This document shows positions 23,712-41,710 of a DNA stretch of 41,710 nucleotides, one piece after another. The DNA is from Candidatus Velthaea sp. (GTDB lineage: Bacteria > Vulcanimicrobiota > Vulcanimicrobiia > Vulcanimicrobiales > Vulcanimicrobiaceae). The stretch is from positions 1 to 41,710 of the forward strand of contig JBEKHC010000055.1 in the NCBI GenBank assembly GCA_050012475.1. Direction: 5' to 3'. A program made the position numbers and the translations under genes. Every line of letters starts with the position of its first letter. Position 1 is the first letter of the stretch. The notes beneath the pieces are model-generated. The model had not been told where the DNA came from. It did not search any database and was given only the letters and a program-made list of their open reading frames with translations.

Positions 23712-23819
23712 TTGCTTGGCGTTCGGTTCAGCGCCGCATGAAACCGGCCCAGCTCCCGCGCAAGCCAGAGCCGTAGTGCCCTTTTGCCGGCGAACCGCAT
23801 CACCTACGCTACGACTATC

Positions 23820-24005
23820 GTGAACGCGCGCGTTGTTTTTCTTTTTCGCGACCAGAACGTCCGCAAACTGGTGCATGCCCGGCATCGGCAAGCGCGCATC
23901 GAAGCGCTGCAGCGGGGCATCCCCGAGGTCGTCGATCCCCAAACCGCGCCGCCCGACGAACTCGCTGCGCGACGGGCGCGCAAAGCAGCGGTCGCAACGC
24001 CGTAA
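23820..24005 (+). CDS. Small hypothetical protein
   Basis: ORF (FLFRDQNVRKLVHARHRQARIEALQRG...) whose stop overlaps the presumptive start of mug. Start uncertain (GTG 23820 or TTG 23784). Confidence 0.5.
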   Translation: MNARVVFLFRDQNVRKLVHARHRQARIEALQRGIPEVVDPQTAPPDELAARRARKAAVATP

Positions 24006-24565
24006 CGACGCTTCCCGATCTCCTTGCCGCTTCGCTCGACGTGGTGTTCGTCGGGATCAACCCGTCGTGCTACTCCGCCGAGCGCGGCCATTATTTCGCG
24101 CGCGGCAGCAACCGCTTCTGGCCGTGTCTGTCCGCTTCGGTCTTGAGTTTGCCGGCGCGCCGCGCGCTCGCGGTTGAAAAGCTCGGCCCGCTGTGCGATC
24201 GCGCGCTGCTCGCACACGGCATCGGCTTCACCGACGTCGTCAAACGCGCGACGCCGAAAGCGAGCGATCTCACGCCATCCGAACTGCGCGCGGGCGTCGC
24301 CGTTCTGCTGGCCAAACTCGAGCGCTACCAGCCGCGCATCGCCTGTTTTCACGGCGTGACGGGGTATCGCTACGTCCACCGCGTGCTCACGGGATCGACC
24401 ACGAAAGTGGAGCTCGGACTGCAAGAGCTGCTGCTCGGGCCCACGCGCGTGTTCGTCGTTCCCAACCCGAGCGGCGCGAACGCGCACTTTACCCGCGCCG
24501 ACCAAACACACTGGTACGACCGGCTCGCGGCGTGCCTTGAGACCCAGCGGCGCGCGGCCGGCTAG
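24002..24565 (+). CDS. mug: Mismatch-specific uracil/thymine DNA glycosylase (UDG family 2)
   Basis: TLPDLLAASLDVVFVGINP, GHYFARGSNRFW, GIGFTDVVKRAT and VPNPSGAN. First canonical start is GTG 24041, downstream of the conserved LPD. Confidence 0.88.
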   Translation, partial: VTTLPDLLAASLDVVFVGINPSCYSAERGHYFARGSNRFWPCLSASVLSLPARRALAVEKLGPLCDRALLAHGIGFTDVVKRATPKASDLTPSELRAGVAVLLAKLERYQPRIACFHGVTGYRYVHRVLTGSTTKVELGLQELLLGPTRVFVVPNPSGANAHFTRADQTHWYDRLAACLETQRRAAG

Positions 24566-25317
24566 TCGCCGCCGCCGTAGGCCGGAAAAGCCGACCTCCA
24601 GCCCGGCGGCGGCAAAAACCGCCCCGGTTCGGCGCGCCGATGGGCGAGATAGCGGTCCCAGTTTTCGCTCGCAAAGGTGACCTCGAGCGCGCGATCGACG
24701 CGCGGGCTGGTCGAAAAGGTCGCCGTAAGGCGGAGTTCGGCGGCGATGGTCGCGTACGACGACGCGATCTGGCGCAGCGTATCGTCGTGCAGGGCGGCCA
24801 CGTCGATGAGGTTCTCGATGCGAATGCTTTCCTGCGGCCGCTGCGGATCGAGCGCCGCGAGCACGTCGAAGCGCACGTAATCGAAGAATTGCGTGGCGTC
24901 GAACTGGTAGCTGATGCGCCCGTCGAAGGTGCTGAGGTCGGCGCAGATCGGCACGGCGCTCAGCGTCCGGCCGAGGCTGCCGTGTCCTTCGAGGCGCCAC
25001 GGGTCGTTCGTCGCGAGCAGCCGTAAATACGCGTCGACGGTGCGCTCGGGATCCTCGAAACAATTGACCTCGAAAGCTTCGGCCTGCGCGTCGCGCCGCG
25101 CGACCCAGGCCCGAATCTCTTCGCGCGTTCCGGCGACGGGCGGCTCGCTCTCGAAGAGCGTGATTTCCGCGTCGTCGCCAAAGCTCAGCTGGACGTCCGA
25201 CACGACCTGGCGGCAATCATCGTACAACACGTAAGCGGCAAAATGGCGCTTCGCCGTTTCGCGATCGGCGGCAGCGATGCGCGCGATGCGCGTCGTCGCG
25301 TAAAAGACTTCGTACAT
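24562..25317 (-). CDS. Hypothetical protein
   Basis: 251-aa ORF with GAGGAG next to the ATG and globular composition. No family recognised. Confidence 0.7.
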   Translation of the reverse strand: MYEVFYATTRIARIAAADRETAKRHFAAYVLYDDCRQVVSDVQLSFGDDAEITLFESEPPVAGTREEIRAWVARRDAQAEAFEVNCFEDPERTVDAYLRLLATNDPWRLEGHGSLGRTLSAVPICADLSTFDGRISYQFDATQFFDYVRFDVLAALDPQRPQESIRIENLIDVAALHDDTLRQIASSYATIAAELRLTATFSTSPRVDRALEVTFASENWDRYLAHRRAEPGRFLPPPGWRSAFPAYGGGD

Positions 25318-25387
25318 GCTCCTCGACGTTCACGCACGACCCGAAAAACCCGGCCGGACGCGCTGCGCGCCCGGCCGGGTCGTGCCC

Positions 25388-27178
25388 TCAGAATTGCGAG
25401 TTGTTGATCGAACCGATCCCGGTGGTTTGATCGTAGCCGCGCGTCGCGTTCCACTGGAGACCGGTGTTGCCGCTCGTGATGTCGTAGAACAGCCCGCCGT
25501 AGACGCCTTGCGGAGCGAAACCGAAGACATCGAAGCTCGCATACAGCCACGGGTTGACGAAGCCGACTTGGGTGTGCAACTCCTGGTTCCATTCAGCGAC
25601 GAGCGCCGACGCTACCGGCGAAGCAACCGACGTACCGGCAACCTCGTACCAACCGCCGATATCCGACTCGTAGAACGCGGTGTACGCACTCGGAACATAC
25701 GCAGAATTGAACGAAATATCCGGCACATTGCGACCCGCAAAGCCACGATTGATCTGTGGCGATGGCGGCGCGATGGTCACGTTCGGAACGTTGGCCATGC
25801 CGCCAACATTGTTCTGGTAGAACGGACGCGGGAAGTAGCTCGACACGCCGCCGCCGCCACCAAGATCGACGGTCGGATCCCAATTCCAGGCAGTTTCGGA
25901 AATACGCGCACCGGTCTTGGGGTCGGCTTGCAGCTGCGTTCCGCCAACGGACAAGAAGTGCGGATCGGCCCCCGGAATAACGACGCCATACGGTTCGTAG
26001 TACAGCGATCCGTCAGCCGCCACGCCCGGAGCATATGCACCCCAGTCGCCGGCGACCGACATAAACGTCATACCTTCGGCGGCACCCTGAATCGCCACGT
26101 TCTCGGTTGCAATCGCGAACGGAATGTCATCGAGTTCGCCGGTACCGAAGCTCGAGCTTACAACCTGAACCGCGTGCTGATCGAGAATCAGGTTGTAGCC
26201 GTCTTCGACCGATGGATCCGAAAGGTCGGCGATCATATAGAGATCGACATTGGCTGCCGGAGCAAGGCTCGACGATTGCTGAACATCGAGTTCCGCTTCG
26301 CCTTCGTCTCCCGTTGCCGCTTGATAGCCGGGATAGGTATCGACCGTAATGCGGTTGATATTGCCCGTCCGTTTGATCTGCGCGGCTTGCCAGAACGCTA
26401 CGAGATCGCTCTGAGGAATATCGGAATCCATGACGATACCGATCGACTGCCCGAGACCCGTATACCCGAACTGGCTTGGAAACTGATACGCTTTCGCATA
26501 CGCCGTCGGATAGTAGCCCTCGAACCCATACTCGTCGATACGCTCGATCGGAGCGCCGGTATCGTGGCCTTTGCCGCCCGGATGCGAATGCTGAAAAACA
26601 AGCGAACTCGTCTTGATCTTGATCAAGTTGTCCAACCCGGAAACAGTTAGAACATCCCCGGCAATCGACGCCGGCACCGAGGCCGCGGTCGCGTTGGCAT
26701 ACCGAATGCCGTGCTTCGTCTGAAGCACCCGATGAATCTCGGTCTTGAACAGACCCGTTGCAGCAGCGGCCGTGCCGGTCGCATCGATCATCGTTCGGTT
26801 GCGGTAGGTTCGCGTGACCCGAAAGCCCGCTGCCGTCAGCGATTGCGCGACTCGCCCGTAACTTGCCGGCGTGGGTCCGAATTCGGCCGCGAACTGCGCC
26901 GGCGTGAGGTAATGCCGAAACAGCGGCGATCCGGGCGTACCTTGCAGATCGACCAGCCGGGTCAGCTCGGCTGCGTTGCGGTAGTTGAGGGCAACCGTGA
27001 TGTTGACCTTGGTCGCGGCCGGTGCGACGCCGAGATCACGCAGGTCATGCCGCACGACGGCGGACGTAATGAGACGGGAAACGGGGGCGCTTGAAAGGTG
27101 CGCTGCGCTCGCCGGAGCGGCAATCGACACGATTGCCGAGCCCGCGAACGTTGCGAGAACGAAGAGGGGAAGATTCAC
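25388..27178 (-). CDS. S53 family (sedolisin/kumamolisin) serine-carboxyl peptidase with pro-domain
   Basis: Signal peptide, pro-kumamolisin domain (PGSPLFRHYLTPAQFAAEFGP), catalytic EAELD, AGDWG, GTSVASP and Ca-site GYDQTTGIGS. GTG 27178 follows GGAG. Confidence 0.92.
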   Translation of the reverse strand: MNLPLFVLATFAGSAIVSIAAPASAAHLSSAPVSRLITSAVVRHDLRDLGVAPAATKVNITVALNYRNAAELTRLVDLQGTPGSPLFRHYLTPAQFAAEFGPTPASYGRVAQSLTAAGFRVTRTYRNRTMIDATGTAAAATGLFKTEIHRVLQTKHGIRYANATAASVPASIAGDVLTVSGLDNLIKIKTSSLVFQHSHPGGKGHDTGAPIERIDEYGFEGYYPTAYAKAYQFPSQFGYTGLGQSIGIVMDSDIPQSDLVAFWQAAQIKRTGNINRITVDTYPGYQAATGDEGEAELDVQQSSSLAPAANVDLYMIADLSDPSVEDGYNLILDQHAVQVVSSSFGTGELDDIPFAIATENVAIQGAAEGMTFMSVAGDWGAYAPGVAADGSLYYEPYGVVIPGADPHFLSVGGTQLQADPKTGARISETAWNWDPTVDLGGGGGVSSYFPRPFYQNNVGGMANVPNVTIAPPSPQINRGFAGRNVPDISFNSAYVPSAYTAFYESDIGGWYEVAGTSVASPVASALVAEWNQELHTQVGFVNPWLYASFDVFGFAPQGVYGGLFYDITSGNTGLQWNATRGYDQTTGIGSINNSQF

Positions 27179-27480
27179 CGGGGTTGACGCTCCGTAATGG
27201 CAAGAGAAGAAAACGAAGACGAGCGCGACTCTAACGAATCGCGAACAGTTAAAACCAACTACAAGCATAGCAGTAAGCGGCGTCTTCGGGCGGTGATATG
27301 TATCTCGTTTGCGGTGCGCGTCGTCCTTCGTTTCGCATGATGATGCGCGCGTAAATTAACCTCCGCCAAACGAACGTACCACGGGGGCATTTTCGGTCAG
27401 CGCGAATCGCGCGGAAATCGCTGCCGCCCGCGAAAGCCGGCGCCTGAACGAACGCATCGCCAAACGCTGCGGTGCATGCA

Positions 27481-27555
27481 GACTGCCTCTATTGACTAGG
27501 CAGTCAAGTCACCCGTATATTCGACCAGCAAAAGAGCGAACTTGCCACAAATGTG
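27481..27555. promoter_or_regulatory. Palindromic candidate operator sites
   Basis: GACTGCCT-N9-AGGCAGTC (27481-27505), TTGACT-N4-AGTCAA (27492-27507) and CACA-AA-TGTG (27546-27555). Confidence 0.5.
27492..27521 (+). promoter_or_regulatory. Sigma-70-type promoter of the deo operon
   Basis: TTGACT (27492-27497), 18-nt spacer, TATATT (27516-27521), followed by GAGGAG RBS at 27559-27564. Confidence 0.6.
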
Positions 27556-27571
27556 AACGAGGAGTGTGGGC

Positions 27572-28603
27572 TTGGCCCGGGACGCGCATGCCGGCAATCG
27601 CCCTGACCTGATGCTCGACGAAGAGCAAGGCTCGGTCCGTTTGCCGTCCGACGAAACGCGCGAACACCTCATGGTTGCAGCGGCAAAATTGTATTATGAA
27701 CTCGACAATACGCAGAACGAGATCGCCCGCGAACTGGGTCTGACGCGCTGGCAAGTCAGCCGGCTCATTCACGAGGCGCGAAAGCTGGGCGTAGTGCGCA
27801 TCGAGATCGTGCCGCGTTCGCAGCGTCGCAGCGATCTCGAAGCCGCGCTGCAAAAGGCGTTCGGTCTGCGCGAAGCAATCGTCGTGCGCCAGCATCAAGG
27901 CCACGACGATGCACTCGTCATCGAGAGTGTCGCCCGTGCCGCGGGACAGTTCCTGGCGAGTGTCAATCCGCGCCCGACGCTGGTCGGCGTGTCCTGGGGG
28001 CGCACGATGGCGACGGTCGCAAAGTGGCTGCCGCCGGCCTGGAGCAGCAACGTTCACGTCGTCCTCGTCAACGGCGCGACGACGCGCCGCTCGACATCCT
28101 AACAGGCCAACTACGTTGCCGAACGCTTTGCGGAGACCGCACTCAACGGTCAAGCAACGCTTCTTCCCGTGCCCGCAATCGTTGGCAAATCAACGACCCG
28201 CGAGGTGCTCGAAGACGATCCGGCGATCGCCGATGTGCTGGAATTGGCCCGTCGGGCGCCGCTGGTCTGCTTCAGCCTGGGCGCGCTCTCGGCCGGCTCG
28301 GTGCTGGTGGGATCGGGCTATCTCGAAGCCCGCGACATCGCGCGGCTGCGCCGTGCGGGCGCGGTCGGCGACATTCTCGGACGCTTTGTCGACCGCTTCG
28401 GAACGATCGTCGATGCGGAACTCGACGCGCGCACGATCGGATTGCGGCCCGAAGCGCTGCGTCACGTTCCGCTTGCGATCGGGGTCAGCGCCGGCGCGGC
28501 GAAGCACGCCGTCGTGCGCAGCTGCGTCGAGGCCGGCTACGTGAAGGTTCTCATCACCGATGAGGGAACCGCGCGCTACTTGCTCGAGTCATGCCGTGGC
28601 TGA
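27572..28603 (+). pseudogene. SorC/DeoR-type sugar-binding transcriptional regulator interrupted by an in-frame TAA
   Basis: HTH AAKLYY...TQNEIARELGLTRWQVSRL, GVSWGRT, GAVGDI and LITDE. TAA at 28100-28102 is followed by in-frame continuation QANYVAERFAE...LPVPAIV. Confidence 0.85.
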
Positions 28604-29546
28604 CCCGGCGCGAAGCCGGCCGCTGTGCGTCGATTGGTTCGCCGACGTTCGCGTCAACCTAAGCGCGGCCGAACGCCGGGCGGCGACGCTGGCAACGCGC
28701 CGTTCGGTCAAAAAAGAATATCAGGCCGCGTGGCTGGTCAAAGCGATCACCTGCATCGACCTCACGACGTTGTCCGGCGACGACACGCCGGGCCGGGTGC
28801 GGCGGCTCGCGGCCAAAGCCCGCCGTCCGCTGCGCGCCGACATCGTCGCGGCACTCGGGCTGAGCGATGCGCCGCCGACGGTCGGAGCGCTCTGCGTGTA
28901 TCCGGCCATGGTCGCGCCGGCGGTCAAAGCGCTCGTCGGATCGGGCATTCCGGTAGCCTCGGTCGCAACGGGTTTTCCGGCCGGTCTGACGCCGCTGCCG
29001 CAGCGGCTGGCCGAGATCCGCTTCGCGCTCGAAGCGGGCGCGGCCGAGATCGACATCGTCATCACGCGCGGCCACGTGCTGCTCGGCGATTGGAACGCGC
29101 TCTACGAAGAGATCTGCGCGATGCGCGAAGCCTGCGGGCCGGCCCACCTCAAGACGATCCTGGGCACCGGCGATCTCAAAACGCTGCGCAACGTGTACGC
29201 GGCCAGCATGGTCGCGATGATGGCCGGTGCCGACTTTATCAAGACTTCGACCGGTAAAGAAGAGGTGAACGCCACGCTGCCGGTGAGTCTGACGATGCTG
29301 CGCGCGTTGCGCGATTTCGGCGAGCGCACCGGCGTGCGGGTCGGCTTCAAGCCCGCCGGCGGCTTGAAAACCGCGAAAGATGCGTTGACCTGGCTGATGC
29401 TGATGAAAGAAGAATTGGGCCGGCCGTGGCTGGAGCCCGATCTGTTTCGCATCGGCGCGAGTTCGATGCTGGGCGACATCGAGCGCCAGCTCGAGCATTA
29501 CGTGACCGGCCGCTATGCGTCCGCGGCGCACCATCCGCTTGCATAA
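28596..29546 (+). CDS. deoC: Deoxyribose-phosphate aldolase
   Basis: IDLTTL, VASVATGFPAG, EIDIVI, ADFIKTSTGK (Schiff-base Lys), GFKPAGG, FRIGASS. Confidence 0.95.
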   Translation: MADPARSRPLCVDWFADVRVNLSAAERRAATLATRRSVKKEYQAAWLVKAITCIDLTTLSGDDTPGRVRRLAAKARRPLRADIVAALGLSDAPPTVGALCVYPAMVAPAVKALVGSGIPVASVATGFPAGLTPLPQRLAEIRFALEAGAAEIDIVITRGHVLLGDWNALYEEICAMREACGPAHLKTILGTGDLKTLRNVYAASMVAMMAGADFIKTSTGKEEVNATLPVSLTMLRALRDFGERTGVRVGFKPAGGLKTAKDALTWLMLMKEELGRPWLEPDLFRIGASSMLGDIERQLEHYVTGRYASAAHHPLA

Positions 29547-29561
29547 CGAGGGAACCGCGCG

Positions 29562-31982
29562 ATGCCGCTAGTCAAGGATATCTTGCAGACGATGGAATAC
29601 GGACCGTCGCCCGAAGCGAACGAGCACGTTACCGGCTGGCTCGCGCAGCACGCCGGCGGCTTCACGCATTTCATCGACGGCGCGTTCGCCGCGCCGCACG
29701 GCGGCGAGACGCTCGAGATCGTCGATCCGGCGCACGCGACGCGCCTGGCCACCGTCGCGCGCGCCACGGCCGCCGATCTCGATGCGGCCGTGGCGGCGGC
29801 GCGCCGCGCGTTCGCGTCGTGGTCGGCGCTGCCCGGACACGCGCGCGCCCGCTATTTGTACGCGATCGCGCGCCACATCCAGAAGCGCGAGCGCTTTCTC
29901 GCCGTGCTCGAGTCGATGGACAACGGCAAGCCGATCCGCGAAACGCGCGACATCGATATTCCGCTGGTCGCGCGCCATTTCTACCATCACGCGGGCTGGG
30001 CCGAATTGATCGAAACCGAGTTCGCGGGATACGGCCCCGTCGGCGTCTGCGGGCAGATCATCCCCTGGAATTTTCCGCTGTTGATGCTCGCCTGGAAGAT
30101 CGCGCCCGCCCTTGCCGCCGGCAATACGGTCGTGCTCAAGCCGGCGAGTTTCACGCCGCTCACGGCGCTGGCGTTCGCCGAGATTTGCCAAGAAGTCGGG
30201 CTGCCCGCCGGCGTCGTCAACATCCTCTTGGGCGACGGCGCGCTGGGCTCGGCGCTCGCCGCGCATCCGGACGTCGACAAGATCGCGTTCACCGGTTCGA
30301 CCGAAGTCGGCCGGTCGATCCGCGAAGTCACCGCGGGTTCGGGCAAACGGCTCTCGCTGGAACTGGGCGGCAAATCGCCGTTCATCGTGTTCGAAGACGC
30401 CGACCTCGACGCCGCGGTCGAGGGCGTCGTCGACGCGATCTGGTTCAATCAAGGGGAAGTGTGCTGCGCCGGTTCGCGGCTGCTGGTGCAAGAGGGGATC
30501 GCGGAACGCTTTCATGCCAAACTCCGCCGCCGGATGGAAACGCTGCGCGTCGGCGATCCGCTCGACAAGTCGACGGATATCGGCGCCATCGTGGCGCCCG
30601 TGCAGATCGAACGCATCCGCGAACTCGTCGAGCAAGCCCGCCGCGAAGGCGGCCGCGTTTGGACCGGGCCCGGCGCGCTGCCCGACGGCGGCTGGTTCTA
30701 TCCGCCCACACTGATCACCGAGGTCGATCCCGCGTCGACGGTGGCCCAGATCGAGATCTTCGGCCCCGTGGCGGTATCGCTGACGTTTCGCACGCCTGAC
30801 GAGGCGCTCGCGCTGGCGAACAACACGCGCTACGGGTTAGCCGCGTCGATCTGGTCGGAGAACATCAACCGCGCGCTCGACGCGGCCGCCAAGGTGAAAG
30901 CCGGCGTCGTCTGGATCAACGCGACGAACCTCTTCGACGCGGGCGCCGGTTTCGGCGGCTACAAAGAGAGCGGCTTCGGCCGGGAAGGCGGCCGCGAAGG
31001 CATGGCCGGCTATCTCGTCGCCGATTGGGAGCGCGGCCGAACGCCGGCCCCGGCGCGGGCGGCCTTCGCGCCGTCGGCGGCCCCGGCGCCGCGGGGCGGC
31101 ACCCCAGCGAACGGCGCGGCCGTGACGCGCCTCCCCGCGATCGACCGCACCGCGAAACTCTTCATCGGCGGCAAACAAGCGCGGCCGGATTCCGGCTCCA
31201 GCTTCACGGTATTCGATGCGGCCGGTTCGCCGCTGGGTCAAGCCGGTTTGGGCAACCGTAAAGATATTCGCAACGCCGTCGAGGCAGCGGCGAAAGCGAG
31301 CAGTTGGAGCAGCGTCACCGCACACAATCGCGCCCAAATCCTGTACTACGTGGGCGAGAATTTGGCGGCGCGCGAAGCGGAATTCGCCGCGCGGCTCACC
31401 GCCCTGACGGGACACGCCCCGCAAGCAGCGGCGCGCGAGGTCGCAGCCGCGATCGCGCGCAGCTTCTGGTATGCGGCGTGGGCCGATAAATACGACGGCG
31501 CCGTTCACGCGACCAAGTCACGGCACGTAACGCTGGCCATTCCCGAGCCCTGGGGCGTCATGGGCGTCGTCTGTCCCGACGAAGCGCCGCTGCTGGCGTT
31601 CATCTCGCTCGTGATGCCCGCGCTGGCCCTGGGCAATCGGGTTGTCGCCGTGCCGTCGGAACGTTACCCGCTGGCCGCGACCGACCTCTATCAGGTGCTG
31701 GACACCAGCGACGTGCCGGCCGGCGTCATCAGCATCGTGACCGGCGAACGCGACGCGCTCGCAAAGGTTCTCGCTCTGCACGACGACGTCGACGCCATCT
31801 GGTACGCGGGCTCGCAAGCCGGCAGCGCGATGGTCGAAAAAGCATGCGCCGGTAATATCAAGGCGAGCTGGGTCAACGACGGTCGCGAACGCGACTGGCA
31901 TCGCGCGCCCGAAGGCCAAGGCCGCGACTACTTGCAGCACGCGACGCAAGTGAAGAACATCTGGGTGCCGTACGGCGATTGA
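29562..31982 (+). CDS. Aldehyde dehydrogenase, ALDH16-type (extra C-terminal ALDH-like domain)
   Basis: IPWNFP, FTGSTEVG, LELGGKSP, catalytic GEVCCAG, EIFGPV, then a second partial ALDH domain ending KNIWVPYGD. 806 aa. Confidence 0.93.
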   Translation: MPLVKDILQTMEYGPSPEANEHVTGWLAQHAGGFTHFIDGAFAAPHGGETLEIVDPAHATRLATVARATAADLDAAVAAARRAFASWSALPGHARARYLYAIARHIQKRERFLAVLESMDNGKPIRETRDIDIPLVARHFYHHAGWAELIETEFAGYGPVGVCGQIIPWNFPLLMLAWKIAPALAAGNTVVLKPASFTPLTALAFAEICQEVGLPAGVVNILLGDGALGSALAAHPDVDKIAFTGSTEVGRSIREVTAGSGKRLSLELGGKSPFIVFEDADLDAAVEGVVDAIWFNQGEVCCAGSRLLVQEGIAERFHAKLRRRMETLRVGDPLDKSTDIGAIVAPVQIERIRELVEQARREGGRVWTGPGALPDGGWFYPPTLITEVDPASTVAQIEIFGPVAVSLTFRTPDEALALANNTRYGLAASIWSENINRALDAAAKVKAGVVWINATNLFDAGAGFGGYKESGFGREGGREGMAGYLVADWERGRTPAPARAAFAPSAAPAPRGGTPANGAAVTRLPAIDRTAKLFIGGKQARPDSGSSFTVFDAAGSPLGQAGLGNRKDIRNAVEAAAKASSWSSVTAHNRAQILYYVGENLAAREAEFAARLTALTGHAPQAAAREVAAAIARSFWYAAWADKYDGAVHATKSRHVTLAIPEPWGVMGVVCPDEAPLLAFISLVMPALALGNRVVAVPSERYPLAATDLYQVLDTSDVPAGVISIVTGERDALAKVLALHDDVDAIWYAGSQAGSAMVEKACAGNIKASWVNDGRERDWHRAPEGQGRDYLQHATQVKNIWVPYGD

Positions 31983-32110
31983 CGCTCCCTTCTCCGCGGT
32001 TCGGCGCGCAGCACCGAACGCCACCGCGGCTTGCGGCGCAGCCGCAAACGCCACGGATTGCGCGAAGCGCAATCCTTAGGATTCGTCGAGCGAAGCCGAG
32101 ACGAATCCAA

Positions 32111-32848: not shown

Positions 32849-33255
32849 TGCTCTTCTCAGTTACCCGCCGGGACCGGCAAATTCTCTCGTGCCGGCCGGC
32901 AGCCACGGGCTCGCCGCGCGTACGGCTCGAGACCGGCGGCTGCGATGCGACCGATTCTATCCAATCTTGCGACCGATCGCTTGCTTAGTCGTAGACGTTA
33001 TTGCACCCGCCGGCGCGCGCAAAGTGCCGTTCCCCGGAAACCTTTGCGCAGCCCGGTCGTCAGTCCGGCCGGCGTGCCGCAAGCCGGGCGACCCTGGATT
33101 CGAGCGCCGCCACTGGGTCCGCGAAGGCCATGCCGCGCGGGCATTCGCAGGCGCCGCGCCGCGCGCCCTCAGGCGCTGCGACTATCCAAATCGACGATCG
33201 ACCCGGGCGCGCAATGTATCGAATCAGCATAATTTTCCGCTGCTGTTACAACAGC

Positions 33256-33630
33256 GTGCGCTTTTGCCGATACCTTTCGTTAGGATATTATCATCGGGAT
33301 ACGCTGCTGAACATCTCAAACTCGCGTTCGAACGGCTTGCTGCTGTTTCGCTCGGATCATATCGTGCTGCAGCAAATCACTGTTGATCCGCGCAAGCGGC
33401 GTCACCGCCACGGCTCGGCAATGCTCGATCTCGCCATCGAGATCGCCAATCAAGCCGGGCTGCGGCTCGAACTCATCGCTGAAGCACCGTCACGTCCGAT
33501 TAAGGCAGACCTCAGCAAGAACGAATTGCAGGCCTGGTACCGGCGGCACAAATTCGTCGATGCCGACGACGTCCTGATGAGCCGCCTCCCCGATGCCGAT
33601 GCGACCAAAGCATCATGGTCCGTCGCGTAG
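33256..33630 (+). CDS. GNAT-like acetyltransferase (divergent)
   Basis: ITVDPRKRRHRHGSAML (motif A-like), LRLELIA, LQAWYRRHKF. Start uncertain (GTG 33256 or ATG 33214). Confidence 0.6.
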   Translation: MRFCRYLSLGYYHRDTLLNISNSRSNGLLLFRSDHIVLQQITVDPRKRRHRHGSAMLDLAIEIANQAGLRLELIAEAPSRPIKADLSKNELQAWYRRHKFVDADDVLMSRLPDADATKASWSVA

Positions 33631-33796
33631 CCGCTTAACCGTTGCTGCGACTTTTCAAGCAGCCCACCGTGCGCAAAACGCCGGCGATCACGCCTTTGCC
33701 CTCACTCCCGTGGCGCGTATGCAGATGCCGCACGAATACCTCCTGCGGATTGATGCGCCGTGAGCGCCAGCACGCACGCGAACGCGATCGGCCCCG

Positions 33797-35293
33797 TTAG
33801 GTTTCGCGCGATGCGCGTAACGGGCCGGCCGGAATCGTGCGCCACGCAACGAGTGCGGCGAGCCATGCCGCCAGCGCACAGACGACCATGTTCCAGCGAA
33901 AGCCGGCCGTATAGGCCGACGCCAGAGCGCCGTCGACGAGCGTGCGGTCCCGTTCGCCGACGTTGGAGACGGGCCGTCCCGTACTCAGAGCGGCGCGGTC
34001 TCGCTCGAGCGTTTGGCGCGTCGCCGCGGACAGCGGCAGTTTGCTGACCGTTCGATCGAATTGAGAATAAAACGTTGTCGACAGCACGATGCCGAGTACC
34101 GCAATCGCCAACAATCCGGCGACGCGCGCCACGGCGTTATTGATGCCCGATGCGACTCCGGCTTGCGCCGTGTCGAGTGCGCTCATCACCGCGGTCGTCA
34201 GCGGGGCGACGAACAAAGCGCCGCCGGCACCGAGAACGACGGCAGCGGGAAAAAAGGTGGTCCAATACGAGCCGCCCACGCCGATGCGCGCATAACACAA
34301 AAAACCGAAGCCGGCGACGATCGCGCCCGTCACCAAAGGCAGCCGTGCCCCGACCGCGGCGGCGAGTCCGCCCGACGGACGCGCGAAGGCGAACATGATC
34401 AGGATGAACGGCAGCATGGCGGCTCCGGCCGCAGTCGGCGAGTAACGCTGCACGTTTTGAAGATCGAACGGCACAAAGTAGAAGCTGCCGCCGAGCGCGG
34501 CGTACAACAGCAACGTATAGAGATTCGCGCCGGTGAACGCCGCGTTTCGAAAGACGTGCAGCGGGACCATGGGCGATCGCGCGCGCTTTTCCCACCCGAC
34601 GAACGCGACGAGCAAGAGCGAACCGAGGACCGTGCTCAGCGCCGCAACGCCATCGCGCGTGCCGTCCCCGAAGCCGGTCAGACCGAACGTCAATCCGCCC
34701 AGCCCAAGCGTCACGAGGATCGCGCCGGCGACATCGACCGACGGGCTTGCCTCGCGGTCTCGGCTTTCGGGAACGGCGAGCGACGCGGCCACGATCACGA
34801 ACAGCGCCGGCGGCAGGTTGATCAAAAACACGTAACGCCAAGAAGCGCTTTGGGCGAGCCAGCCGCCCAGCAATGGGCCGATCGCCGCGGTGATCGCGGC
34901 AAAGCCCGACCAGGTGCCGATGGCCCGGCCGCGCGCGGGTCCGGCGAAGTTCGCGCTGATCAAGGCCAGGCTGCCGGGTGTCGCGAGAGCGCCCCCGGCG
35001 CCTTGCAGGCAGCGCGCGACGTCGAGCTGTTCGATGGTTTGCGCGGCGGCACACGCGGCCGACGCGAGCGCGAACACGGCGATGCCGGCCACGAACGTGC
35101 GGCGACGCCCGAACCGGTCGCCCAGTGCGCCGCCGACGAGGATCAGCGCCGACATAAACAACGCGTACCCCTCGACGACCCAGGCCAGTTTCGCGGCATC
35201 CGAGCGCAGATCGACCTGGATCGACGGCAGCGCAACGTTGACGGCGCTCGAGTCGATGAACGCCATGCTCGAACCGGCGATCGTCACCGCCAA
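33797..35293 (-). CDS. DHA2 (EmrB/QacA-type) MFS transporter
   Basis: GSSMAFIDSSAVNVALP, GALGDRFGRRR, GPLLGGWL, WRYVFLINLP, ASGINNA. About 14 TM segments. The true start is probably upstream of TTG 35293. Confidence 0.92.
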   Translation of the reverse strand: MAVTIAGSSMAFIDSSAVNVALPSIQVDLRSDAAKLAWVVEGYALFMSALILVGGALGDRFGRRRTFVAGIAVFALASAACAAAQTIEQLDVARCLQGAGGALATPGSLALISANFAGPARGRAIGTWSGFAAITAAIGPLLGGWLAQSASWRYVFLINLPPALFVIVAASLAVPESRDREASPSVDVAGAILVTLGLGGLTFGLTGFGDGTRDGVAALSTVLGSLLLVAFVGWEKRARSPMVPLHVFRNAAFTGANLYTLLLYAALGGSFYFVPFDLQNVQRYSPTAAGAAMLPFILIMFAFARPSGGLAAAVGARLPLVTGAIVAGFGFLCYARIGVGGSYWTTFFPAAVVLGAGGALFVAPLTTAVMSALDTAQAGVASGINNAVARVAGLLAIAVLGIVLSTTFYSQFDRTVSKLPLSAATRQTLERDRAALSTGRPVSNVGERDRTLVDGALASAYTAGFRWNMVVCALAAWLAALVAWRTIPAGPLRASRET

Positions 35294-35344
35294 GACCCAG
35301 GACGACGTGCGTCCGCGTGTGGCCGCGTTACGCCGAATGAAGCA

Positions 35345-35932
35345 TTACTGCCACTCGACCTCGATGCCGTAGGCGCGGCGCAGGTGGTTGACGATGTCCG
35401 ACCGCGCATCGGCATAGCGCCGGGGCACCAACAAGCGTTGTGGATACGCGAACTGCGCGCGATACCCGTGCTCGTGGACGATCACTCGCCCCCACAACGC
35501 AACTTTTCCGTACACGTGCGGCGTCATCTTCCCGCGCGACTGCTCGTCGAAATACGTTTCGGCCTGACTGCGGCTGGTGAACGCATGGATGCCGTGGCGC
35601 AAGCCGGTGCGACCCGAACCGCAACACGCTTTCATCGGTTCGCCGGCCGGCCAAACCGAGGCCATGAACGTGCTCAGCAGCGGCGCATGCTGCTCGGTCG
35701 GCTGCGCCAAACGCCAGACGCGCCAGCCGATCATCGTCTCCGCGAACTCCCGGACGCGCCCCGATTTCGGCGGCTCGTCGCGCAAGATAAACTCGCGCGT
35801 GTCTTCTATGCAGGCATCGGTTGGGGCGCGGCCGGCTGCGGAATCGCAGGCAGTTTGCTCGGTATCGGCAGCTCTTTGGGGATGACGATTCGTTCCTCGA
35901 TCGGAAGGCCAATCTCCATCGATTCTCTCCAT
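35345..35932 (-). CDS. Hypothetical protein with GWRVW / GIHAF / VALWGRV...GYRAQFAYP motifs
   Basis: Conserved-looking C-terminal domain after a disordered N-terminus. Confidence 0.7.
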   Translation of the reverse strand: MERIDGDWPSDRGTNRHPQRAADTEQTACDSAAGRAPTDACIEDTREFILRDEPPKSGRVREFAETMIGWRVWRLAQPTEQHAPLLSTFMASVWPAGEPMKACCGSGRTGLRHGIHAFTSRSQAETYFDEQSRGKMTPHVYGKVALWGRVIVHEHGYRAQFAYPQRLLVPRRYADARSDIVNHLRRAYGIEVEWQ

Positions 35933-36145
35933 CAACGTGTGTACTCTCGTCCAAACATCAGCGGCTGGGCTGGAGCGACTAAGGAATTGCCGCTTCTTTA
36001 CCCGGAGACGAGCCAAAATCAACGAACGCCGCGAGACTGCATGCGCAAGCTTAACAAGAGTCTAGCCGTTCGTCGAACTTGTCGGACAAACGGCCAGGGC
36101 GCCCTTCGCGACGCCGCACGAACGCATGCTTGGACACCGTGCTTG

Positions 36146-36910
36146 CTACATGTCTTGTTCGGTGGGCCGCACGAGCATTTCGTTGATCGCGACACGCCGC
36201 GGACGGGTCACGATGTAAGCGATTGCGTCGGCGATGTCGTCCGCTTCCAGACGTTCGGTCTCGCCGAAACGCGCTCGAATCATCTCCTGGACCTGCGGCT
36301 TGTTGTGTGACGCCAGTTCGGTCGCGACGGCGCCCGGCTCGACCAGCGCAACGCGGACGTGGCGCTTCGTCACTTCTTGGCGCAGCGATTCGCTAAACGC
36401 GTTGACGGCGAACTTCGACGCGTTGTACACGCCGCTGCCCAGGCGCGCGATGCGGCCGGCGGTCGAGCTGACATTGACGATGTCGGCGACACGGCGCGGG
36501 CTGCTCTCGGCAGCCCGGATCAGATGCGGCAGCGCGGCGTGCGTCACGTGCAACAGACCGGTTACGTTGAGATCGATCATCCGCGACCATTCGCTCGTTT
36601 CGGCATCGACGATCGGGCCCAGCAGCATCACGCCCGCGTTGTTGACGACCGTATCGAGCCGGCCGAATTCGGCGGCCGCGCGCGCAACGGCGCCGCGCGC
36701 CTGCTCCTCATCGGTGACGTCGACTTCGATCGCGAGCGCCCCGACGCCGGTCGCCCGGACGCGCGCGGCCAGCTCGTCGAGCCGGTCGCGCCGGCGCGCG
36801 ACGAGGGCCACCGATGCGCCGGCTTTGGCCAGCGCCAGTGCGGTCGCCTCGCCGATGCCCGAACTCGCGCCCGTGACGAGCGCCGCCGTTGAGTCGAGTC
36901 GTTCAGCCAT
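36146..36910 (-). CDS. SDR family NAD(P)-dependent oxidoreductase
   Basis: TGASSGIG, ARR (NADP preference), NNAG, catalytic S...YNASK, EPGAVATE. Confidence 0.95.
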   Translation of the reverse strand: MAERLDSTAALVTGASSGIGEATALALAKAGASVALVARRRDRLDELAARVRATGVGALAIEVDVTDEEQARGAVARAAAEFGRLDTVVNNAGVMLLGPIVDAETSEWSRMIDLNVTGLLHVTHAALPHLIRAAESSPRRVADIVNVSSTAGRIARLGSGVYNASKFAVNAFSESLRQEVTKRHVRVALVEPGAVATELASHNKPQVQEMIRARFGETERLEADDIADAIAYIVTRPRRVAINEMLVRPTEQDM

Positions 36911-36953
36911 GGCAAGCATGTAGCACAAAATCGAGCCGGCGAAACGGCGCGGT

Positions 36954-39746
36954 CTACTGTTCGCGCAGAATCAAACCGTGGGGCAACGATTCACCGAACA
37001 AACTGATCCGTTCCGCGCGTTCCATCGGAACGTATTCTCGCAACGGGATCGTTTTTGCCGGCGGGACGCCCGAGCGTTCGAGCCGATCGGCGATCCGGTT
37101 GCGCACTGATTTGGGCACGTCGAGACTGCGATTGTTGATCAATCGCGCAGCGCGCAAAAAGAGCGTTTGCAGCTCTTTGAGTTTGGGTCCGTCCCACTCG
37201 AGCCGCGCGAAGGCCTCGAACGCCCGTGCCACCAGCTCCGGCGCCACCACGGTTTCCGGCCCGGCGTACAGCGGCGTCCGGTTGAGCAAGAGCGCGAGCG
37301 CAGCAAGATAATGCGCGTAGTGCTTGTTTCCCGCGGCGTGCGCCGACGCCGCGTCGATGAAGCCTTCGACCAGCCCGGTTTTCATCTCCGGACCGATGCG
37401 TTCGAGTGAACCGGCGAGCAGCACGAGCTCCGGCGAAGGGTTCGGCTGGCGGCACAGCGCGTCCAGATGCGGTGCGACGATACTTTCCTGGCGTTCGCGC
37501 GACAGACCGCCGCCCACGCGGCGCCACAAGATGTGCTCCTGGATCTCGAGCGCTTTGCTGCGAAAGGCCAGCCCCGTTTCACGCAACGTCCACAGCCGAT
37601 CGATCCGGGCCTCGTCGAGCGCCGCGCCGAAGCCGGGGCGCAACAGAAATCCGGCCAGAATGAGCCACGCCTCCTCGTGCTCCAGCGACGTTCGGCGGCT
37701 GGTCATGCATGCGTCCAGCGTCGACCACAGCGCGCGGACCAGCAGCACGTTCCACTCGCTCTTGGGCATGCCCAGCAGCAGTTCCAAACTCTTGATCAGC
37801 CGGCTCGCGGTCAGCTTGTCGCGTCTGTTGAGCGGTTGGCCGAACATGGCGGCGATTCGGCCGCGCGCGGCATCGAGCGCCGCCGGCGCGGCATTGGGTC
37901 CAGACTCGGCCGGTGTCGCGGACGGCTGCGAGCGGCCCGGCTCGCCGCCCGCGCCGGCTTCACTCGGGCGAAGATTGAACTCCAGCGGCCAGTTTCCGCG
38001 AATCTGGGGATCCGTGCTGCGGCAGGCGAGTTCGAGCAGCCCGAGTTCGTTGAGCTTGGCGTTCAAGCGAACCGGGACCGCCTGGCTCTCCGCTGCATGG
38101 TCGGCGCCGGCGGCTCGCGCGACGGTCTCCAGCGGCGGTAACGCTTGAAAGTCACGATCGTTCCAGGCCACGACGTCGCCGGCCTCATTCGCGCCGTGCC
38201 GCGTCGAGTAGTAGGTCCGGAATTGCACGGGCCGATTGATGCGCAGTTCCAGCGCCAGATCGGCGATCTCGTAGCGGCGTTCCGTCGGCGCGTTGCGCGG
38301 CAGGATGCAGACCAGCGGCGGACCCTCGGCTGCCTCGCCGGAGAGCGACGCGCGATGCGCCTCGAGAAAGATTGCGCGCGCGCTGCCGGCCGCGATCCGT
38401 TCGCCGCCGCGCCCGAGCGCGCCGAAGCACGCGGCGCCGCGGGCAACCGCGAGATCCAGTTCGAGATTGTCCAGCATGGGCGGCGGCGGGCGATTCTGCC
38501 AGCTTCCGATTTGGCGGCACAGCCGCTCGCGCAGGACCAGTGGAGCGAGGGCGCCGCCGTTGAACAGCACGGCGTCGACCGCCGGCCGGTCGCGCAGAAA
38601 CGCGGCGAGATGCCGGGTCACCGCAGGATCCGCCGCGTAAGGAAGCCCCCATTCACCGAGCGCTGCTTTCTTTTGCAGCGGACGTTCGTCGGCGTAGCAG
38701 TCGGGAAAGAATCCGTCGATGATCGCCGCTTCGATCTCCGCGCGCGTCAGTTGCGCCGAGCGCGCGCCGGCGATGAGGCTCGAACCGCGTCCGGCCAACA
38801 CGATGGGAAACGTCTGGCCGGGCGGACCCGCGTGCGACAGAGCCGATTCTTTCGCGTCGCGGCAGCGGGCGACGAGCGCGGCGAATTGTCCGCCGGACAG
38901 CCGTTCGCCGGCATCGACGAATTGCGGTTCGAGCCGATGGGCGAGCGCGAGGTCCATGTTGTCGCCGCCGAGCAGGATGTGATCGCTCACCGCGATGCGC
39001 GTGATCCGCGGGCTGCTGCCGTCCGCGCCCGGCGCGTCGAACGCGAACAGACTGAAGTCCGACGTGCCGCCGCCGATGTCGACGACGAGGACATGTCCGG
39101 GCTGGTCGAAGTGCGCGCGTGCCGCTCCGGCGTGTTCGAGCCAACGGTAAAACGCCGCCTGCGGTTCTTCGAGCAGGCGAACCGTCTCGGGAAAGCCGGC
39201 CTCGGCTGCCGCGGCGAGCGTCAGACGCTGCGCGACCGCGTCGAACGACGCCGGAACGGTGATCGTGACGATCTGGTTATCGAAGGCGAAATCGGCCCCG
39301 GCGGGCGCGAATCGCTCGTTCCACGCGGCCCGCAGATGCTGCAGGATCAGCGCGGAAGCGCCGACGGGCGAGAGTTTGTTTTCGCGAGCGATGTCGCCCG
39401 AACCCCAAGGCAGAATCGGCGCCGAGCGATCGACGGCGTGATGGCAGAGCCACGACTTGGCCGAATGCGCGACGCGTTCGGGGCGCTCGGCGGATCTCGT
39501 TCGCGCCAATCGGCCGATCACCCAACGCTCGCCGTCCGTCGGCGCGCCCGCGAACGCGCCGGCCTCTTCGTCGTCGGGAAGATACAGAAACGACGGCAGC
39601 GTCGCTGCTTCGACGACGACGTGCGACGACTCGCGTTGCGGGATCGGCACCACGTCGGAGCCGGCGTCGCGATCGAGCGCAACGCACGCCAGGGCACAGT
39701 TGGTCGTGCCGAGGTCGATGCCGACGCTGAACCGCGCGCGCGTCAC
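36954..39746 (-). CDS. Atypical Hsp70-family protein with C-terminal DUF3731-type helical domain
   Basis: GIDLGTTN, TVPASFD, LEEPQAAF, DIGGGTSDFS, LLGGDNMD, then WLILAGFLLRPGFG...ISLFGESLPHGL. GTG overlaps the upstream TGA. Confidence 0.9.
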   Translation of the reverse strand: MTRARFSVGIDLGTTNCALACVALDRDAGSDVVPIPQRESSHVVVEAATLPSFLYLPDDEEAGAFAGAPTDGERWVIGRLARTRSAERPERVAHSAKSWLCHHAVDRSAPILPWGSGDIARENKLSPVGASALILQHLRAAWNERFAPAGADFAFDNQIVTITVPASFDAVAQRLTLAAAAEAGFPETVRLLEEPQAAFYRWLEHAGAARAHFDQPGHVLVVDIGGGTSDFSLFAFDAPGADGSSPRITRIAVSDHILLGGDNMDLALAHRLEPQFVDAGERLSGGQFAALVARCRDAKESALSHAGPPGQTFPIVLAGRGSSLIAGARSAQLTRAEIEAAIIDGFFPDCYADERPLQKKAALGEWGLPYAADPAVTRHLAAFLRDRPAVDAVLFNGGALAPLVLRERLCRQIGSWQNRPPPPMLDNLELDLAVARGAACFGALGRGGERIAAGSARAIFLEAHRASLSGEAAEGPPLVCILPRNAPTERRYEIADLALELRINRPVQFRTYYSTRHGANEAGDVVAWNDRDFQALPPLETVARAAGADHAAESQAVPVRLNAKLNELGLLELACRSTDPQIRGNWPLEFNLRPSEAGAGGEPGRSQPSATPAESGPNAAPAALDAARGRIAAMFGQPLNRRDKLTASRLIKSLELLLGMPKSEWNVLLVRALWSTLDACMTSRRTSLEHEEAWLILAGFLLRPGFGAALDEARIDRLWTLRETGLAFRSKALEIQEHILWRRVGGGLSRERQESIVAPHLDALCRQPNPSPELVLLAGSLERIGPEMKTGLVEGFIDAASAHAAGNKHYAHYLAALALLLNRTPLYAGPETVVAPELVARAFEAFARLEWDGPKLKELQTLFLRAARLINNRSLDVPKSVRNRIADRLERSGVPPAKTIPLREYVPMERAERISLFGESLPHGLILREQ

Positions 39747-41581
39747 TCCGTTCGAACGGCGAACTCGACTTTCCAGCGCCGATCGGAGTTCGTGTGCTTC
39801 ATCCACAATTCGAGCGTCCCGAGTTCGGTGACGACCGCATTGATGTGGACCGGGACAGCCTGACCTGCCGGAAATCCGTCGACCGGCGGAAGGTCGACTT
39901 GCAGCAGACCCGTCTCTTCGAGTTCGCGCTCCGCATCGGGCAGAATTTGTCCCGGCTGGTCGCCGCTGCGCGTTTCGGAAGAAAAGAACCGGAAATCCGC
40001 CAGGTGCCCGGTCATCAAGCCGAATTCGCGCCCCTCGATGAGCAGCTCCGACCCTTCTTCCATCGCCTGCGGAACGACGCACAGCGCTTTGACCGGCGGC
40101 CTGAATCCGGGCACCGCGGGCATCGACGTTTCCAAGCCGATGTAGTACGAACGCGCGGTTCCGGCCTTGATGCGCGTGCCTTTCCCGGTGACGCGATTGC
40201 GGCCGTACAGCGCGGCGCCCTTGGCCACCGCGAGGTCGAGCTGCGCGCCTTCGAGTTCACGCACCGGACCGTTCGTCCACGACGCCAACAGATCGCGCAC
40301 GCGCGCGCGCAGCGGCGCGGCGTTGAACACGCCGCCGTTGAACAGCACGGCCGTCGGCGCGAGCAGGGTTTGCGCTTCGGCGCGCGCGCCGACCAGCCGC
40401 GCGAGCGAATCGCTGGCCTTTACGTTGGCCAGGCTGCGCACCAAAAACCGCGCCAGATGTTTGCTGATCGCTGCGTCCGCGGCGTACGGCAGACCGAACT
40501 CGCGCAGTCCGGCGCCGCGCGACTCTTGGGGCAGATCGCCGGCGCCGGTGAGCGGGAAGAAACCGTCGAGCACGACGCGTTCGAGCGTCGCGCGCTCGAG
40601 CGTCGTCGACACCGCGCGCGCGAACAGACTCGATCCGCGCGACGGCACGGCAATCGGCACATCAGTCAACGCCGGATCGCCGAAGAGCGCGATCTTCGCG
40701 CGCGCGGCGGCGTGCACGAGCGCGAGCAATTGCCACGCATCGATGCTTTTCCCGTCGGCTTCCAGCTGCGCTTTGAGCGTGTAGGCCAGCGCCAGATCCA
40801 TGTTGTCGCCGCCGAGCAAGATATGCTCGCCGACGCTGATGCGTTCCAACTGCAGCGCGCCGTCGATTTCGGTGACGGCGATCAGACTGAAATCCGCGGT
40901 GCCGCCGCCGATATCGCAGACCAGCACGACGTCGCCGGGTCCGACTTGCGTGCGCCATTCACGCGCCGCTTGCGAGATCCAAGCGTAGAACGCTGCTTGC
41001 GGTTCTTCGAGCAGAACGACCGCGCCGAGTCCGGCGGCCTCGGCGGCTTGCGCCGTGAGATTGCGCGCCACTTCGTCGAACGAGGCGGGCACGGCGAGCA
41101 CGACCGTGCCGTCGGACAAACTCCGTTCTCGGCCGTGCACGCGTTCGGCGTAAAGAAACCCGTCCTTCAAATGTTCCAAATAGCGGCGCGAGCATTCGAA
41201 CGGAGACAGCTTTTGCTCTTCGATATCCGAATTCCAAGGCAGCACTTGCCGGCGCGCATCGATGTGCGGATTCGAAAGCCACGACTTGGCCGAGGTTACG
41301 AGCCGGTCGGGAACGAGCGCGCCGTGGTCGCGCGCGAATTGCCCGACGATCGCGTGGTCGTCGGTCGGCGTGGCCCACGGCAACCGCAGCGCCTCTGCCG
41401 GAAACTCGTCGGGGTGCGGGATGTAGAGCGCGGACGGCAGCGTCGGCTGTTCGCCGATTTGGTTCGGCGAGAGAATTTGGGTGACGTCGACGATCTCGGT
41501 GCGGTCGTTTTCGAGATCGGTGACCGCGATCGCGCTGTTGGTGGTTCCGAGATCGATGCCGAAACTGAATCGTGCGCTTAT
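39743..41581 (-). CDS. Atypical Hsp70-family protein (probable ATA start)
   Basis: The frame is open 66 codons upstream of the ORF-track TTG and includes FSFGIDLGTTNS. Also VPASFDE, EEPQAAF, DIGGGTADFS, ending WKVEFAVR. Confidence 0.9.
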   Translation of the reverse strand: MSARFSFGIDLGTTNSAIAVTDLENDRTEIVDVTQILSPNQIGEQPTLPSALYIPHPDEFPAEALRLPWATPTDDHAIVGQFARDHGALVPDRLVTSAKSWLSNPHIDARRQVLPWNSDIEEQKLSPFECSRRYLEHLKDGFLYAERVHGRERSLSDGTVVLAVPASFDEVARNLTAQAAEAAGLGAVVLLEEPQAAFYAWISQAAREWRTQVGPGDVVLVCDIGGGTADFSLIAVTEIDGALQLERISVGEHILLGGDNMDLALAYTLKAQLEADGKSIDAWQLLALVHAAARAKIALFGDPALTDVPIAVPSRGSSLFARAVSTTLERATLERVVLDGFFPLTGAGDLPQESRGAGLREFGLPYAADAAISKHLARFLVRSLANVKASDSLARLVGARAEAQTLLAPTAVLFNGGVFNAAPLRARVRDLLASWTNGPVRELEGAQLDLAVAKGAALYGRNRVTGKGTRIKAGTARSYYIGLETSMPAVPGFRPPVKALCVVPQAMEEGSELLIEGREFGLMTGHLADFRFFSSETRSGDQPGQILPDAERELEETGLLQVDLPPVDGFPAGQAVPVHINAVVTELGTLELWMKHTNSDRRWKVEFAVRTE

Positions 41582-41710
41582 TGGAGTTCGACCTCAGCGG
41601 GAGCGATGGTCGGCAGTTCGCTGCCGGCGCGGGGGAGAACGCGCGGGAGCTTCACCGACGCGGTCTTCCAACCGCGATGCATGAGCGTTCCCGAAAACGG
41701 CGCGCGGCCG
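41578..41710 (-). CDS. DUF2760 domain protein, C-terminal end (runs off the window)
   Basis: GRAPFSGTLMHRGWKTASVKLP...IAPAEVELQ-TAA, the C-terminus typical of DUF2760 proteins that precede such Hsp70 pairs. Confidence 0.75.
   Translation of the reverse strand, partial: GRAPFSGTLMHRGWKTASVKLPRVLPRAGSELPTIAPAEVELQ

Follow-up and report, generated by a model that had tools for sequence, protein, structure and literature searches.

A contig of 41,710 nucleotides from Candidatus Velthaea sp. (family Vulcanimicrobiaceae), a bacterium of soil and peat, contains gene junctions at which the downstream gene has no ATG, GTG, or TTG where its homologs start. The contig (JBEKHC010000055.1; C55 among the 204 contigs of the assembly) is called the window here, at its full length. 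An earlier note on this DNA had read two of its junctions as clear cases of near-cognate starts (GTA at 24002, ATA at 41581), with ATT as a weaker third, and had proposed a lineage-level system in which four-letter overlaps of stop and start drift from RTGA to RTAA (R, purine; Y, pyrimidine). We take the weaker case to be the MFS transporter gene at 35338. What emerges from the wider counts looks like a scattered, CTG-dominated habit common to other GC-rich bacteria, with no special RTAA system.

The features are collected in Table 1. The 4-nt overlap geometry is found between the DUF2760 gene and the first Hsp70-like gene, and at the uracil-DNA glycosylase (UDG) gene, where the upstream open reading frame (ORF) is putative, but not at the MFS gene, which is set off from its neighbor by a gap of 6 nt. 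Canonical GTGA overlaps lie in the same window on the minus strand, as the earlier note had them: the two listed in Table 1 and a third, at 39743-39746, between the two Hsp70-like genes.

Table 1. Junction genes and stop/start overlaps in the window, numbered from its first letter
Feature	Position	Strand	Basis or remark
GTGA overlap, canonical	12411..12414	-	sequence
GTGA overlap, canonical	17366..17369	-	sequence
Putative 61-codon ORF; its TAA overlaps GTA	23819..24005	+	weak coding score, 13.5
UDG family gene without canonical start	24002..24565	+	Pfam UDG from residue 6
MFS transporter gene	33797..35338	-	Pfam MFS_1 from residue 22; homolog N-termini
ORF upstream of MFS gene, function unassigned	35345..36022	-	ORF and coding score
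Second Hsp70-like/DUF3731 gene	36954..39746	-	canonical GTGA overlap with first Hsp70-like gene
First Hsp70-like gene, 612 codons, intact	39743..41581	-	Pfam HSP70 from residue 7
ATAA stop/start overlap, ATA the likely start	41578..41581	-	homolog alignment, second assembly
DUF2760 gene, 3' end	41578..41710	-	Pfam PF10816; cut by contig end; stop TAA at 41580-41578

Start sites in the window

The frame of the first Hsp70-like gene is closed four codons upstream of the ATA, and its first ATG, GTG, or TTG lies 66 codons in. Most of its homologs (79 loci) have ATG exactly seven codons before a GIDLG motif, the position of the ATA in the window. A search for the same-register pattern in junction DNA brought together 31 genome and 50 metagenome loci, amounting to 61 distinct contexts. 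Fifty-eight of these are canonical (33 GTGA, 21 ATGA, 3 ATG with a 1-nt overlap, and 1 TTGA), and the remaining three are a GTAG with TTG two codons on, an ATAG, and an ATAA. The ATAA is no private error of the assembly, in keeping with the earlier note: a metagenome contig (L252) that matches the window at all but 2 of 867 letters keeps it. The gene is present in 4 of 150 other genomes of the family, in five copies, of which four have ATG 12-22 nt past the stop and one (L170) has an ATAG overlap. ATA is therefore the apparent start in two of six family copies. The L170 copy is 83% identical to that of the window, with an open frame and a stretch resembling a Shine-Dalgarno (SD) sequence, GGAG, before the ATA. 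Comparison of the two gives 213 synonymous against 107 replacement codon differences, a pattern that points to past purifying selection on the gene.

The ATA at 41581 thus appears to be a real start, because homologs have ATG there, the frame is closed upstream, a second assembly agrees, and one family copy has ATAG at the same place; that the gene is translated from it is our inference. No strong extended SD precedes the ATA, judging by eye, just GGAG in L170 and, in the window, GAGGT 9 nt before the ATA, provided by Glu-Val codons of the DUF2760 gene. A quick tree does not place the two ATA copies as sisters and so lends no support to a single origin, although they may have had one. A programmed -1 frameshift that would fuse DUF2760 to the Hsp70-like protein is rejected, there being no slippery run and only four open codons upstream.

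The UDG gene differs in that its start codon is harder to name. A non-canonical start is forced by the sequence, because the first canonical codon, a GTG at 24041, falls within the UDG domain. This much of the earlier note's second clear case stood; GTA itself and the coupling to the upstream ORF are unproven, candidate readings. Besides GTA at 24002 there are ACG codons at 24005 and 24008, the first of which overlaps the stop in the manner of TAATG, and the 61-codon ORF has neither a Pfam match nor a homolog. Homologs of the UDG gene were found in 5 of 60 relatives, none of them syntenic, and so they do not test the GTAA junction. In one of them, from the family (L085), the corresponding codon is TTG, and the others have ATG or GTG further up. 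In one member of the genus (L083) a TAG falls within the match, and in another (L086-L087) the match is divided between two frames. Judging by these disrupted homologs, the genus may be in the course of losing the UDG gene.

For the MFS gene, an ATT start is plausible but not forced by the sequence, which is what remains of the weaker case. The ATT (35338-35336) begins 6 nt past the upstream TAA and 24 codons before a MAFID motif, but the start could also be a TTG at 35293, nine codons ahead of that motif. Among the close homologs listed, three have Met 24 codons before the motif, and others have it at 10-58. Thirteen of 87 database copies, including one 99% identical, are annotated as starting with the Met of the motif itself. 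The latter copy starts 24 residues late, bearing out the contention that gene callers truncate such genes. The TAA of the upstream ORF does overlap an ATG, but one that opens a frame of five codons (35345-35328), 1 nt out of the MFS frame.

Four sequencing runs, all in the form of contigs, were compared with the window. Contigs from one of them (X1) cover the sites at 24002 and 35338 and span the MFS junction without gaps, and a contig from an RNA run (X17) covers the site at 41581 with three differing letters, whose places are not listed. This is coverage by contigs alone, from which neither expression nor the exact letters of the junctions follow.

Overlaps across the genome

The assembly (5.36 Mb, 64% GC, 93.8% complete, 5.3% contaminated) yielded 4793 genes by a self-trained hexamer model, and gene ends were classed by their last four letters. 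A junction was considered a candidate if 10 or more codons preceded the first canonical codon of the downstream gene and the sequence ahead of that codon resembled coding sequence. The p values of this screen are uncorrected.

Canonical 4-nt overlaps numbered 663 (ATGA at 345 of 540 ends, GTGA at 241 of 536, TTGA at 77 of 347). Near-cognate candidates numbered 26 (CTGA 13 of 791, ATAG 5 of 240, ATAA 2 of 208, GTAA 3 of 406, GTAG 3 of 408), and the ends taken as non-start controls, CTAR and TTAR, gave 6 of 1317. The earlier note had named the lack of a genome-wide enrichment of RTAA as an outcome that would count against its system, and a lack is what the screen gave: 5 of 614 for RTAA versus 1 of 742 for YTAA (p = 0.10). 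RTAA is not the main class either. CTGA is the commonest (p = 0.008), followed by ATAG; ATAR together gave p = 0.026 and GTAR p = 0.39. A second screen found CTGA 18 times against 9.1 expected (p = 0.002) and ATAG 6 times against 3.1, with no excess of ATAA (1 against 2.4) or GTAA (2 against 4.8). The UDG case at 24002 was not returned by the genome-wide screen.

Pfam was applied to all 31 candidates outside the window, controls included. Seventeen of the near-cognate junctions have the support of a Pfam domain that begins before the first canonical codon (CTGA 10 of 13, ATAG 2 of 5, ATAA 2 of 2, GTAA 2 of 3, GTAG 1 of 3); only the ATAA count includes a case from the window, leaving 1 of 1 outside it. 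Altogether, about 3-5% of the 4-nt overlaps in this genome are non-canonical, CTG being the commonest and ATAG next, and the occurrence of a GTAA and an ATAA case in one window is a local cluster. CTG, ATC, ATT, and ATA candidates appear also at other offsets and after spacers, in genes that we take to be lpxC, truB, metI, rsfS, and recG. Also, ATC is found seven bases before the end of the stop (the ATCGTAA type) three times against 0.2 expected, along with several ATTAG/ATCNNTAA overlaps. In some of the cases that look like GTA, the start may in fact be ATC.

Perhaps the window genes were recently silenced, by loss of the start or (in the MFS gene) by a shift of 1 nt from the ATG on the upstream stop, or perhaps the junctions are errors of assembly. 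The window also contains a regulator gene that an in-frame TAA at 28100 divides in two, three of the six YTAR controls look like broken genes (two others seem to start at a near-cognate codon further in), and the assembly is in 204 contigs with 5.3% contamination. But L252 keeps ATAA, the 83% identical family copy has ATAG and an open frame, a run contig spans the MFS junction without gaps, and of the 4793 called genes just 9 lie behind an in-frame stop with no start close by, among them several real gene pairs. Silencing or error is thus a very unlikely explanation.

Relatives, controls, and the rsmA gene

The same junctions were followed through the family, leaving out of every count the rows from genomes flagged as unpublished. 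Kin are not independent in these counts, and rluD, rsmA, thiL, hisB, glycerate kinase, and cobS were picked for their non-canonical state in this genome; hisH was not so picked. Of 28 copies of rluD, 13 have no canonical codon close to where homologs begin; nine of these have CTG, two ATAR, and two GTAR, and both GTAR copies carry an in-frame ATC just ahead. In the his operon, 12 of 34 overlaps of 4 nt are non-canonical (hisB CTGA in 8, hisH ATAG in 4). The glycerate kinase junction has ATA in all four readable orthologs, including that of this genome (one with ATG seven codons on), cobS has GTAR in three of four genus members, and thiL has CTGA in 8 of 26 rows, which were not inspected singly. 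Orthologous junctions evidently switch among ATGA, GTGA, CTGA, ATAR, and GTAR, and the ATA and GTA forms recur in the family at rsmA, hisH, rluD, glycerate kinase, and the Hsp70-like gene. To this extent the earlier note was right: the genome does have near-cognate starts at coupled junctions, and such starts recur in its family (at rluD, his, and rsmA).

The same operon in control lineages gave 1 of 41 in Thermoleophilia (the class of a Solirubrobacteraceae genome), 0 of 30 in the class of a genome titled Dormibacterota, and 0 of 24 in the phylum of a Myxococcales genome, hence 1 of 95 in all against 12 of 34 in the family. The unselected dcw regions were counted in three groups of 20 genomes each. 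In the family there were 136 canonical overlaps versus 7 non-canonical rows, of which five are hisB and one is doubtful; in Thermoleophilia 40 versus 0; and in the Dormibacteria class 76 versus 7 rows, four of them CTGA, in addition to which that set has ATT starts of rsmH. The dcw counts leave out many other non-canonical rows that came from mis-called upstream frames. Three Dormibacteria-class loci (L525, L527, L531) and one family locus (L499) have an rsmH whose apparent start, ATT or CTG, overlaps the stop of the gene before it.

The comparison at genome level consists of two control genomes, 400 kb each, run through one script. By the same script, 400-kb samples of the Velthaea genome (8 batches) gave 13 CTGA, 3 ATAR, 3 GTAR, and 10 YTAR versus 346 canonical overlaps, one Thermoleophilia genome (G244) gave 6 CTGA (four of them Pfam-supported) versus 88, and the second control genome (G348) gave 0 versus 23. 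CTG overlaps are not lineage-specific, because G244 and the Dormibacteria-class dcw regions show as many. Taken together, non-canonical overlaps are no more frequent here than in either set, which lends no support to the lineage-level RTAA system. ATAR overlaps were absent from the his, dcw, and 400-kb control sets, for which the rate of this genome would predict just two or three; an excess of ATA-type overlaps in the family is possible. In G244, rsfS starts at CTG (L718:4218-4556). An apparent CTG start is found also in the Velthaea genome (C26, near 36168), in a gene that we presume to be rsfS.

The gene for the 16S dimethylase RsmA (KsgA) deserves separate treatment. In 15 of 26 family genomes it has no canonical start: seven have an ATAR overlap, three a GTAR overlap, and five other arrangements. 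The non-canonical codons differ among genomes, both with and without overlap, and the other 11 copies are canonical. On a tree of 25 of those genomes (the Velthaea copy lies on C31, 28266-29111), the start label changes five times, two of the changes forced by well-supported branches. In five other genomes rsmA has ATGA, GTGA, GTG, what is probably a GTG, and, in the one from another family of the phylum Vulcanimicrobiota, an ATT preceded by an SD.

Such a pattern raises the possibility of gene-specific regulation, weak starts being selected as negative feedback at genes whose products act on initiation fidelity or on the maturation of the ribosome (infC, rsmA, and perhaps rluD, rsmH, and rsfS), with the window cases as by-products. 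The turnover of rsmA codons, with at least five changes on the tree, would fit this explanation, as would the ATT behind an SD in a second family of the phylum, the CTG of rsfS in G244, and the ATT or CTG of rsmH in several dcw loci. Cells of E. coli that lack KsgA are reported to initiate more at near- and non-cognate codons (PMC6868393), and loss of RsmH is reported to raise AUU initiation 1.8-fold (PMC2831307), which again favors it. However, 11 of the 26 rsmA copies are canonical, hisB, hisH, thiL, and glycerate kinase behave alike with no link to the ribosome, and low demand alone accounts for weak starts. As a general account of the junctions, gene-specific feedback seems to us quite unlikely.

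The proposal for rsmA in particular is doubtful as well, if somewhat better placed. On this view the rsmA gene of Vulcanimicrobiota retains a start other than AUG (ATA, GTA, ATT, or ATC, in most cases at the stop of the preceding gene) and thereby acts as a sensor of initiation fidelity. Immature 30S subunits, unmethylated, would discriminate poorly among starts, more rsmA would be translated, and maturation would be restored: a second loop like that of infC. In its boldest form, the ribosome of the family, altered in helix 44 of 16S RNA, would also tolerate ATA and even GTA at coupled junctions more readily than the ribosomes of other bacteria. A literature search, which did not extend to supplements, turned up no paper on start codons in Vulcanimicrobiota or on a non-AUG start of ksgA. 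A non-AUG start of rsmA across the phylum is the more interesting lead; the pattern offers a direct test case for the autoregulation of ribosome-maturation enzymes through start-codon fidelity.

The initiation apparatus and a likely explanation

The earlier note had looked to infC, the initiator tRNA, and the 3' end of 16S RNA for substitutions, and none were found. IF3, at 70-88% to those of the 19 closest loci, has no notable change in an alignment, its invariant columns being shared with IF3 of Bacillota and actinobacteria. The tRNA-fMet keeps its three G-C pairs. The anti-SD CACCTCCTT is intact in five of five relatives (the genome's own 16S was not assembled), uS9 ends in SKR, and RsmH and RsmE are present in five of five relatives. 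An altered IF3, tRNA-fMet, anti-SD, or uS9 tail, or a missing RsmH or RsmE, is therefore set aside as the cause. In this genome and at the 19 closest loci (20 of 20), the start of infC is an ATA that follows GGAGG. The genome also has two IF1-like genes, on contigs C17 and C73.

There is one departure. The 16S RNA of Vulcanimicrobiia has a non-standard upper helix 44, with Watson-Crick pairs where four control copies have G-U wobble, at a site we take to be about 1415-1485 in E. coli numbering. The controls that differ are the Thermoleophilia and Myxococcota copies; the helix of the Dormibacteria-class genome resembles that of the family. A literature search found no paper on the effect of such a change.

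Perhaps, then, start-codon discrimination is relaxed throughout the lineage, the proposed RTAA class being widened to ATA, CTG, and GTA, with the unusual helix 44 behind it. The contrast in the his operon (12 of 34 in the family, 1 of 95 in controls), the non-canonical copies of rluD (13 of 28) and rsmA (15 of 26), the lack of ATAR overlaps in any control set, and the difference in helix 44 from Thermoleophilia and Myxococcota all speak for this. But hisB, rluD, thiL, and rsmA were picked for their state in this genome, and in the unselected dcw regions the family has one or two further cases beside 136 canonical overlaps, compared with about four to seven beside 76 in the Dormibacteria class. 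G244, with a standard helix 44, has as many CTG overlaps, and the variant helix is accordingly rejected as a necessary cause of CTG starts. The 3' pattern of the helix is found in many phyla among the matches listed, including Coriobacteriia, Spirochaetia, and Synergistota. RTAA is not enriched, and the ATA start of infC, if it serves feedback, would require discrimination that works. We regard relaxed discrimination as unlikely.

We think instead that these junctions are probably weak near-cognate starts at translationally coupled genes, read by an ordinary initiation apparatus. The junction genes are intact, and the codon that overlaps the stop of the preceding gene is CTG, ATA, or GTA. A ribosome ending at that stop would already sit over the junction codon, and, often helped by an SD-like stretch within the last upstream codons, it could re-initiate there with fMet-tRNA, if only a few per cent as often as at AUG. 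In E. coli, AUA, AUC, AUU, and CUG are reported to yield 1-2% of AUG (10.1101/063800), and in S. aureus near-cognate starts behind strong SDs reportedly reach about 10-30% (PMC13009471). A single change (ATGA to ATAA, or ATGA, GTGA, or TTGA to CTGA) would keep the upstream stop, so a weak start may survive where little protein is needed. Among annotated starts, switches from ATG to CTG or ATT are described as very rare (PMC5622118).

Several known systems are akin to these junctions. Like the ATGA and TGATG pairs of Huber et al. 2019 (PMC6728339), the genes here are co-directed, overlap by 4 nt, and often have an SD-like motif in the upstream gene; those pairs are described as coupled by termination-reinitiation, whereas here the overlap codon is CTG, ATA, or GTA and coupling is presumed. 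Conserved non-canonical starts include AUU in infC and pcnB of E. coli (10.1101/063800) and, in S. aureus, AUA in infC, ccpN, and citZ and AUU in cvfC1 (PMC13009471). As in those accounts, a weak codon is found at a homologous position, kept at all 20 infC loci but only in part of the family copies of the Hsp70-like gene and of rsmA, and the infC of this genome, with ATA behind GGAGG, is a plain member of the group. The starts reported there have a strong extended SD, however, while the junctions here mostly have an upstream stop and short SD-like stretches, and their codon turns over. Finally, a GUA initiation mutant of E. coli recJ, apparently coupled by re-initiation, was suppressed by alleles of IF3 (Haggerty and Lovett 1997, as cited in PMC2268962), indicating that IF3 acts on re-initiation. 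There the defect was relieved by a mutant IF3; here IF3 looks unremarkable, and the GTA junctions occur in nature.

A few points weigh against coupled weak starts as the explanation. Both the start sites and the coupling are inferred from sequence. The measurements in E. coli (10.1101/063800) do not count GTA among the near-cognate codons, and in several cases GTA has an in-frame ATC, ACG, or AGG beside it. The ATA-type overlaps of 4 nt, repeated in the family and absent from controls, may be a real bias of the lineage. And near-cognate starts at other offsets or behind spacers imply that coupling is not the whole story.

If coupled weak starts are what these junctions are, gene callers limited to ATG, GTG, and TTG would cut short a few per cent of the coupled genes that GC-rich soil bacteria carry (those so shortened here include hisB, rluD, rsmA, and recO), and surveys of start codons and overlaps that build on annotation would undercount such junctions. 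Junctions that switch among ATGA, GTGA, CTGA, ATAR, and GTAR would also provide a natural series bearing on the strictness of IF3 during re-initiation.

The window offers some minor observations. The DUF2760 gene and the two Hsp70-like genes (36954-41710, minus strand) are patchy in distribution, occurring in 5 of 151 family genomes, and the cluster is common to Verrucomicrobiota, Alphaproteobacteria, and Myxococcota; its patchiness and its presence in distant phyla suggest horizontal spread. The split regulator gene (27566-28603, plus strand), of the SorC/DeoR sugar-binding type and lying before a deoC-like gene, has its in-frame TAA at 28100-28102, and the two halves match consecutive parts of PF04198. 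After an aldehyde dehydrogenase gene, a short repeated or palindromic stretch (31985-32110) has a much higher contig depth and is probably a dispersed repeat.

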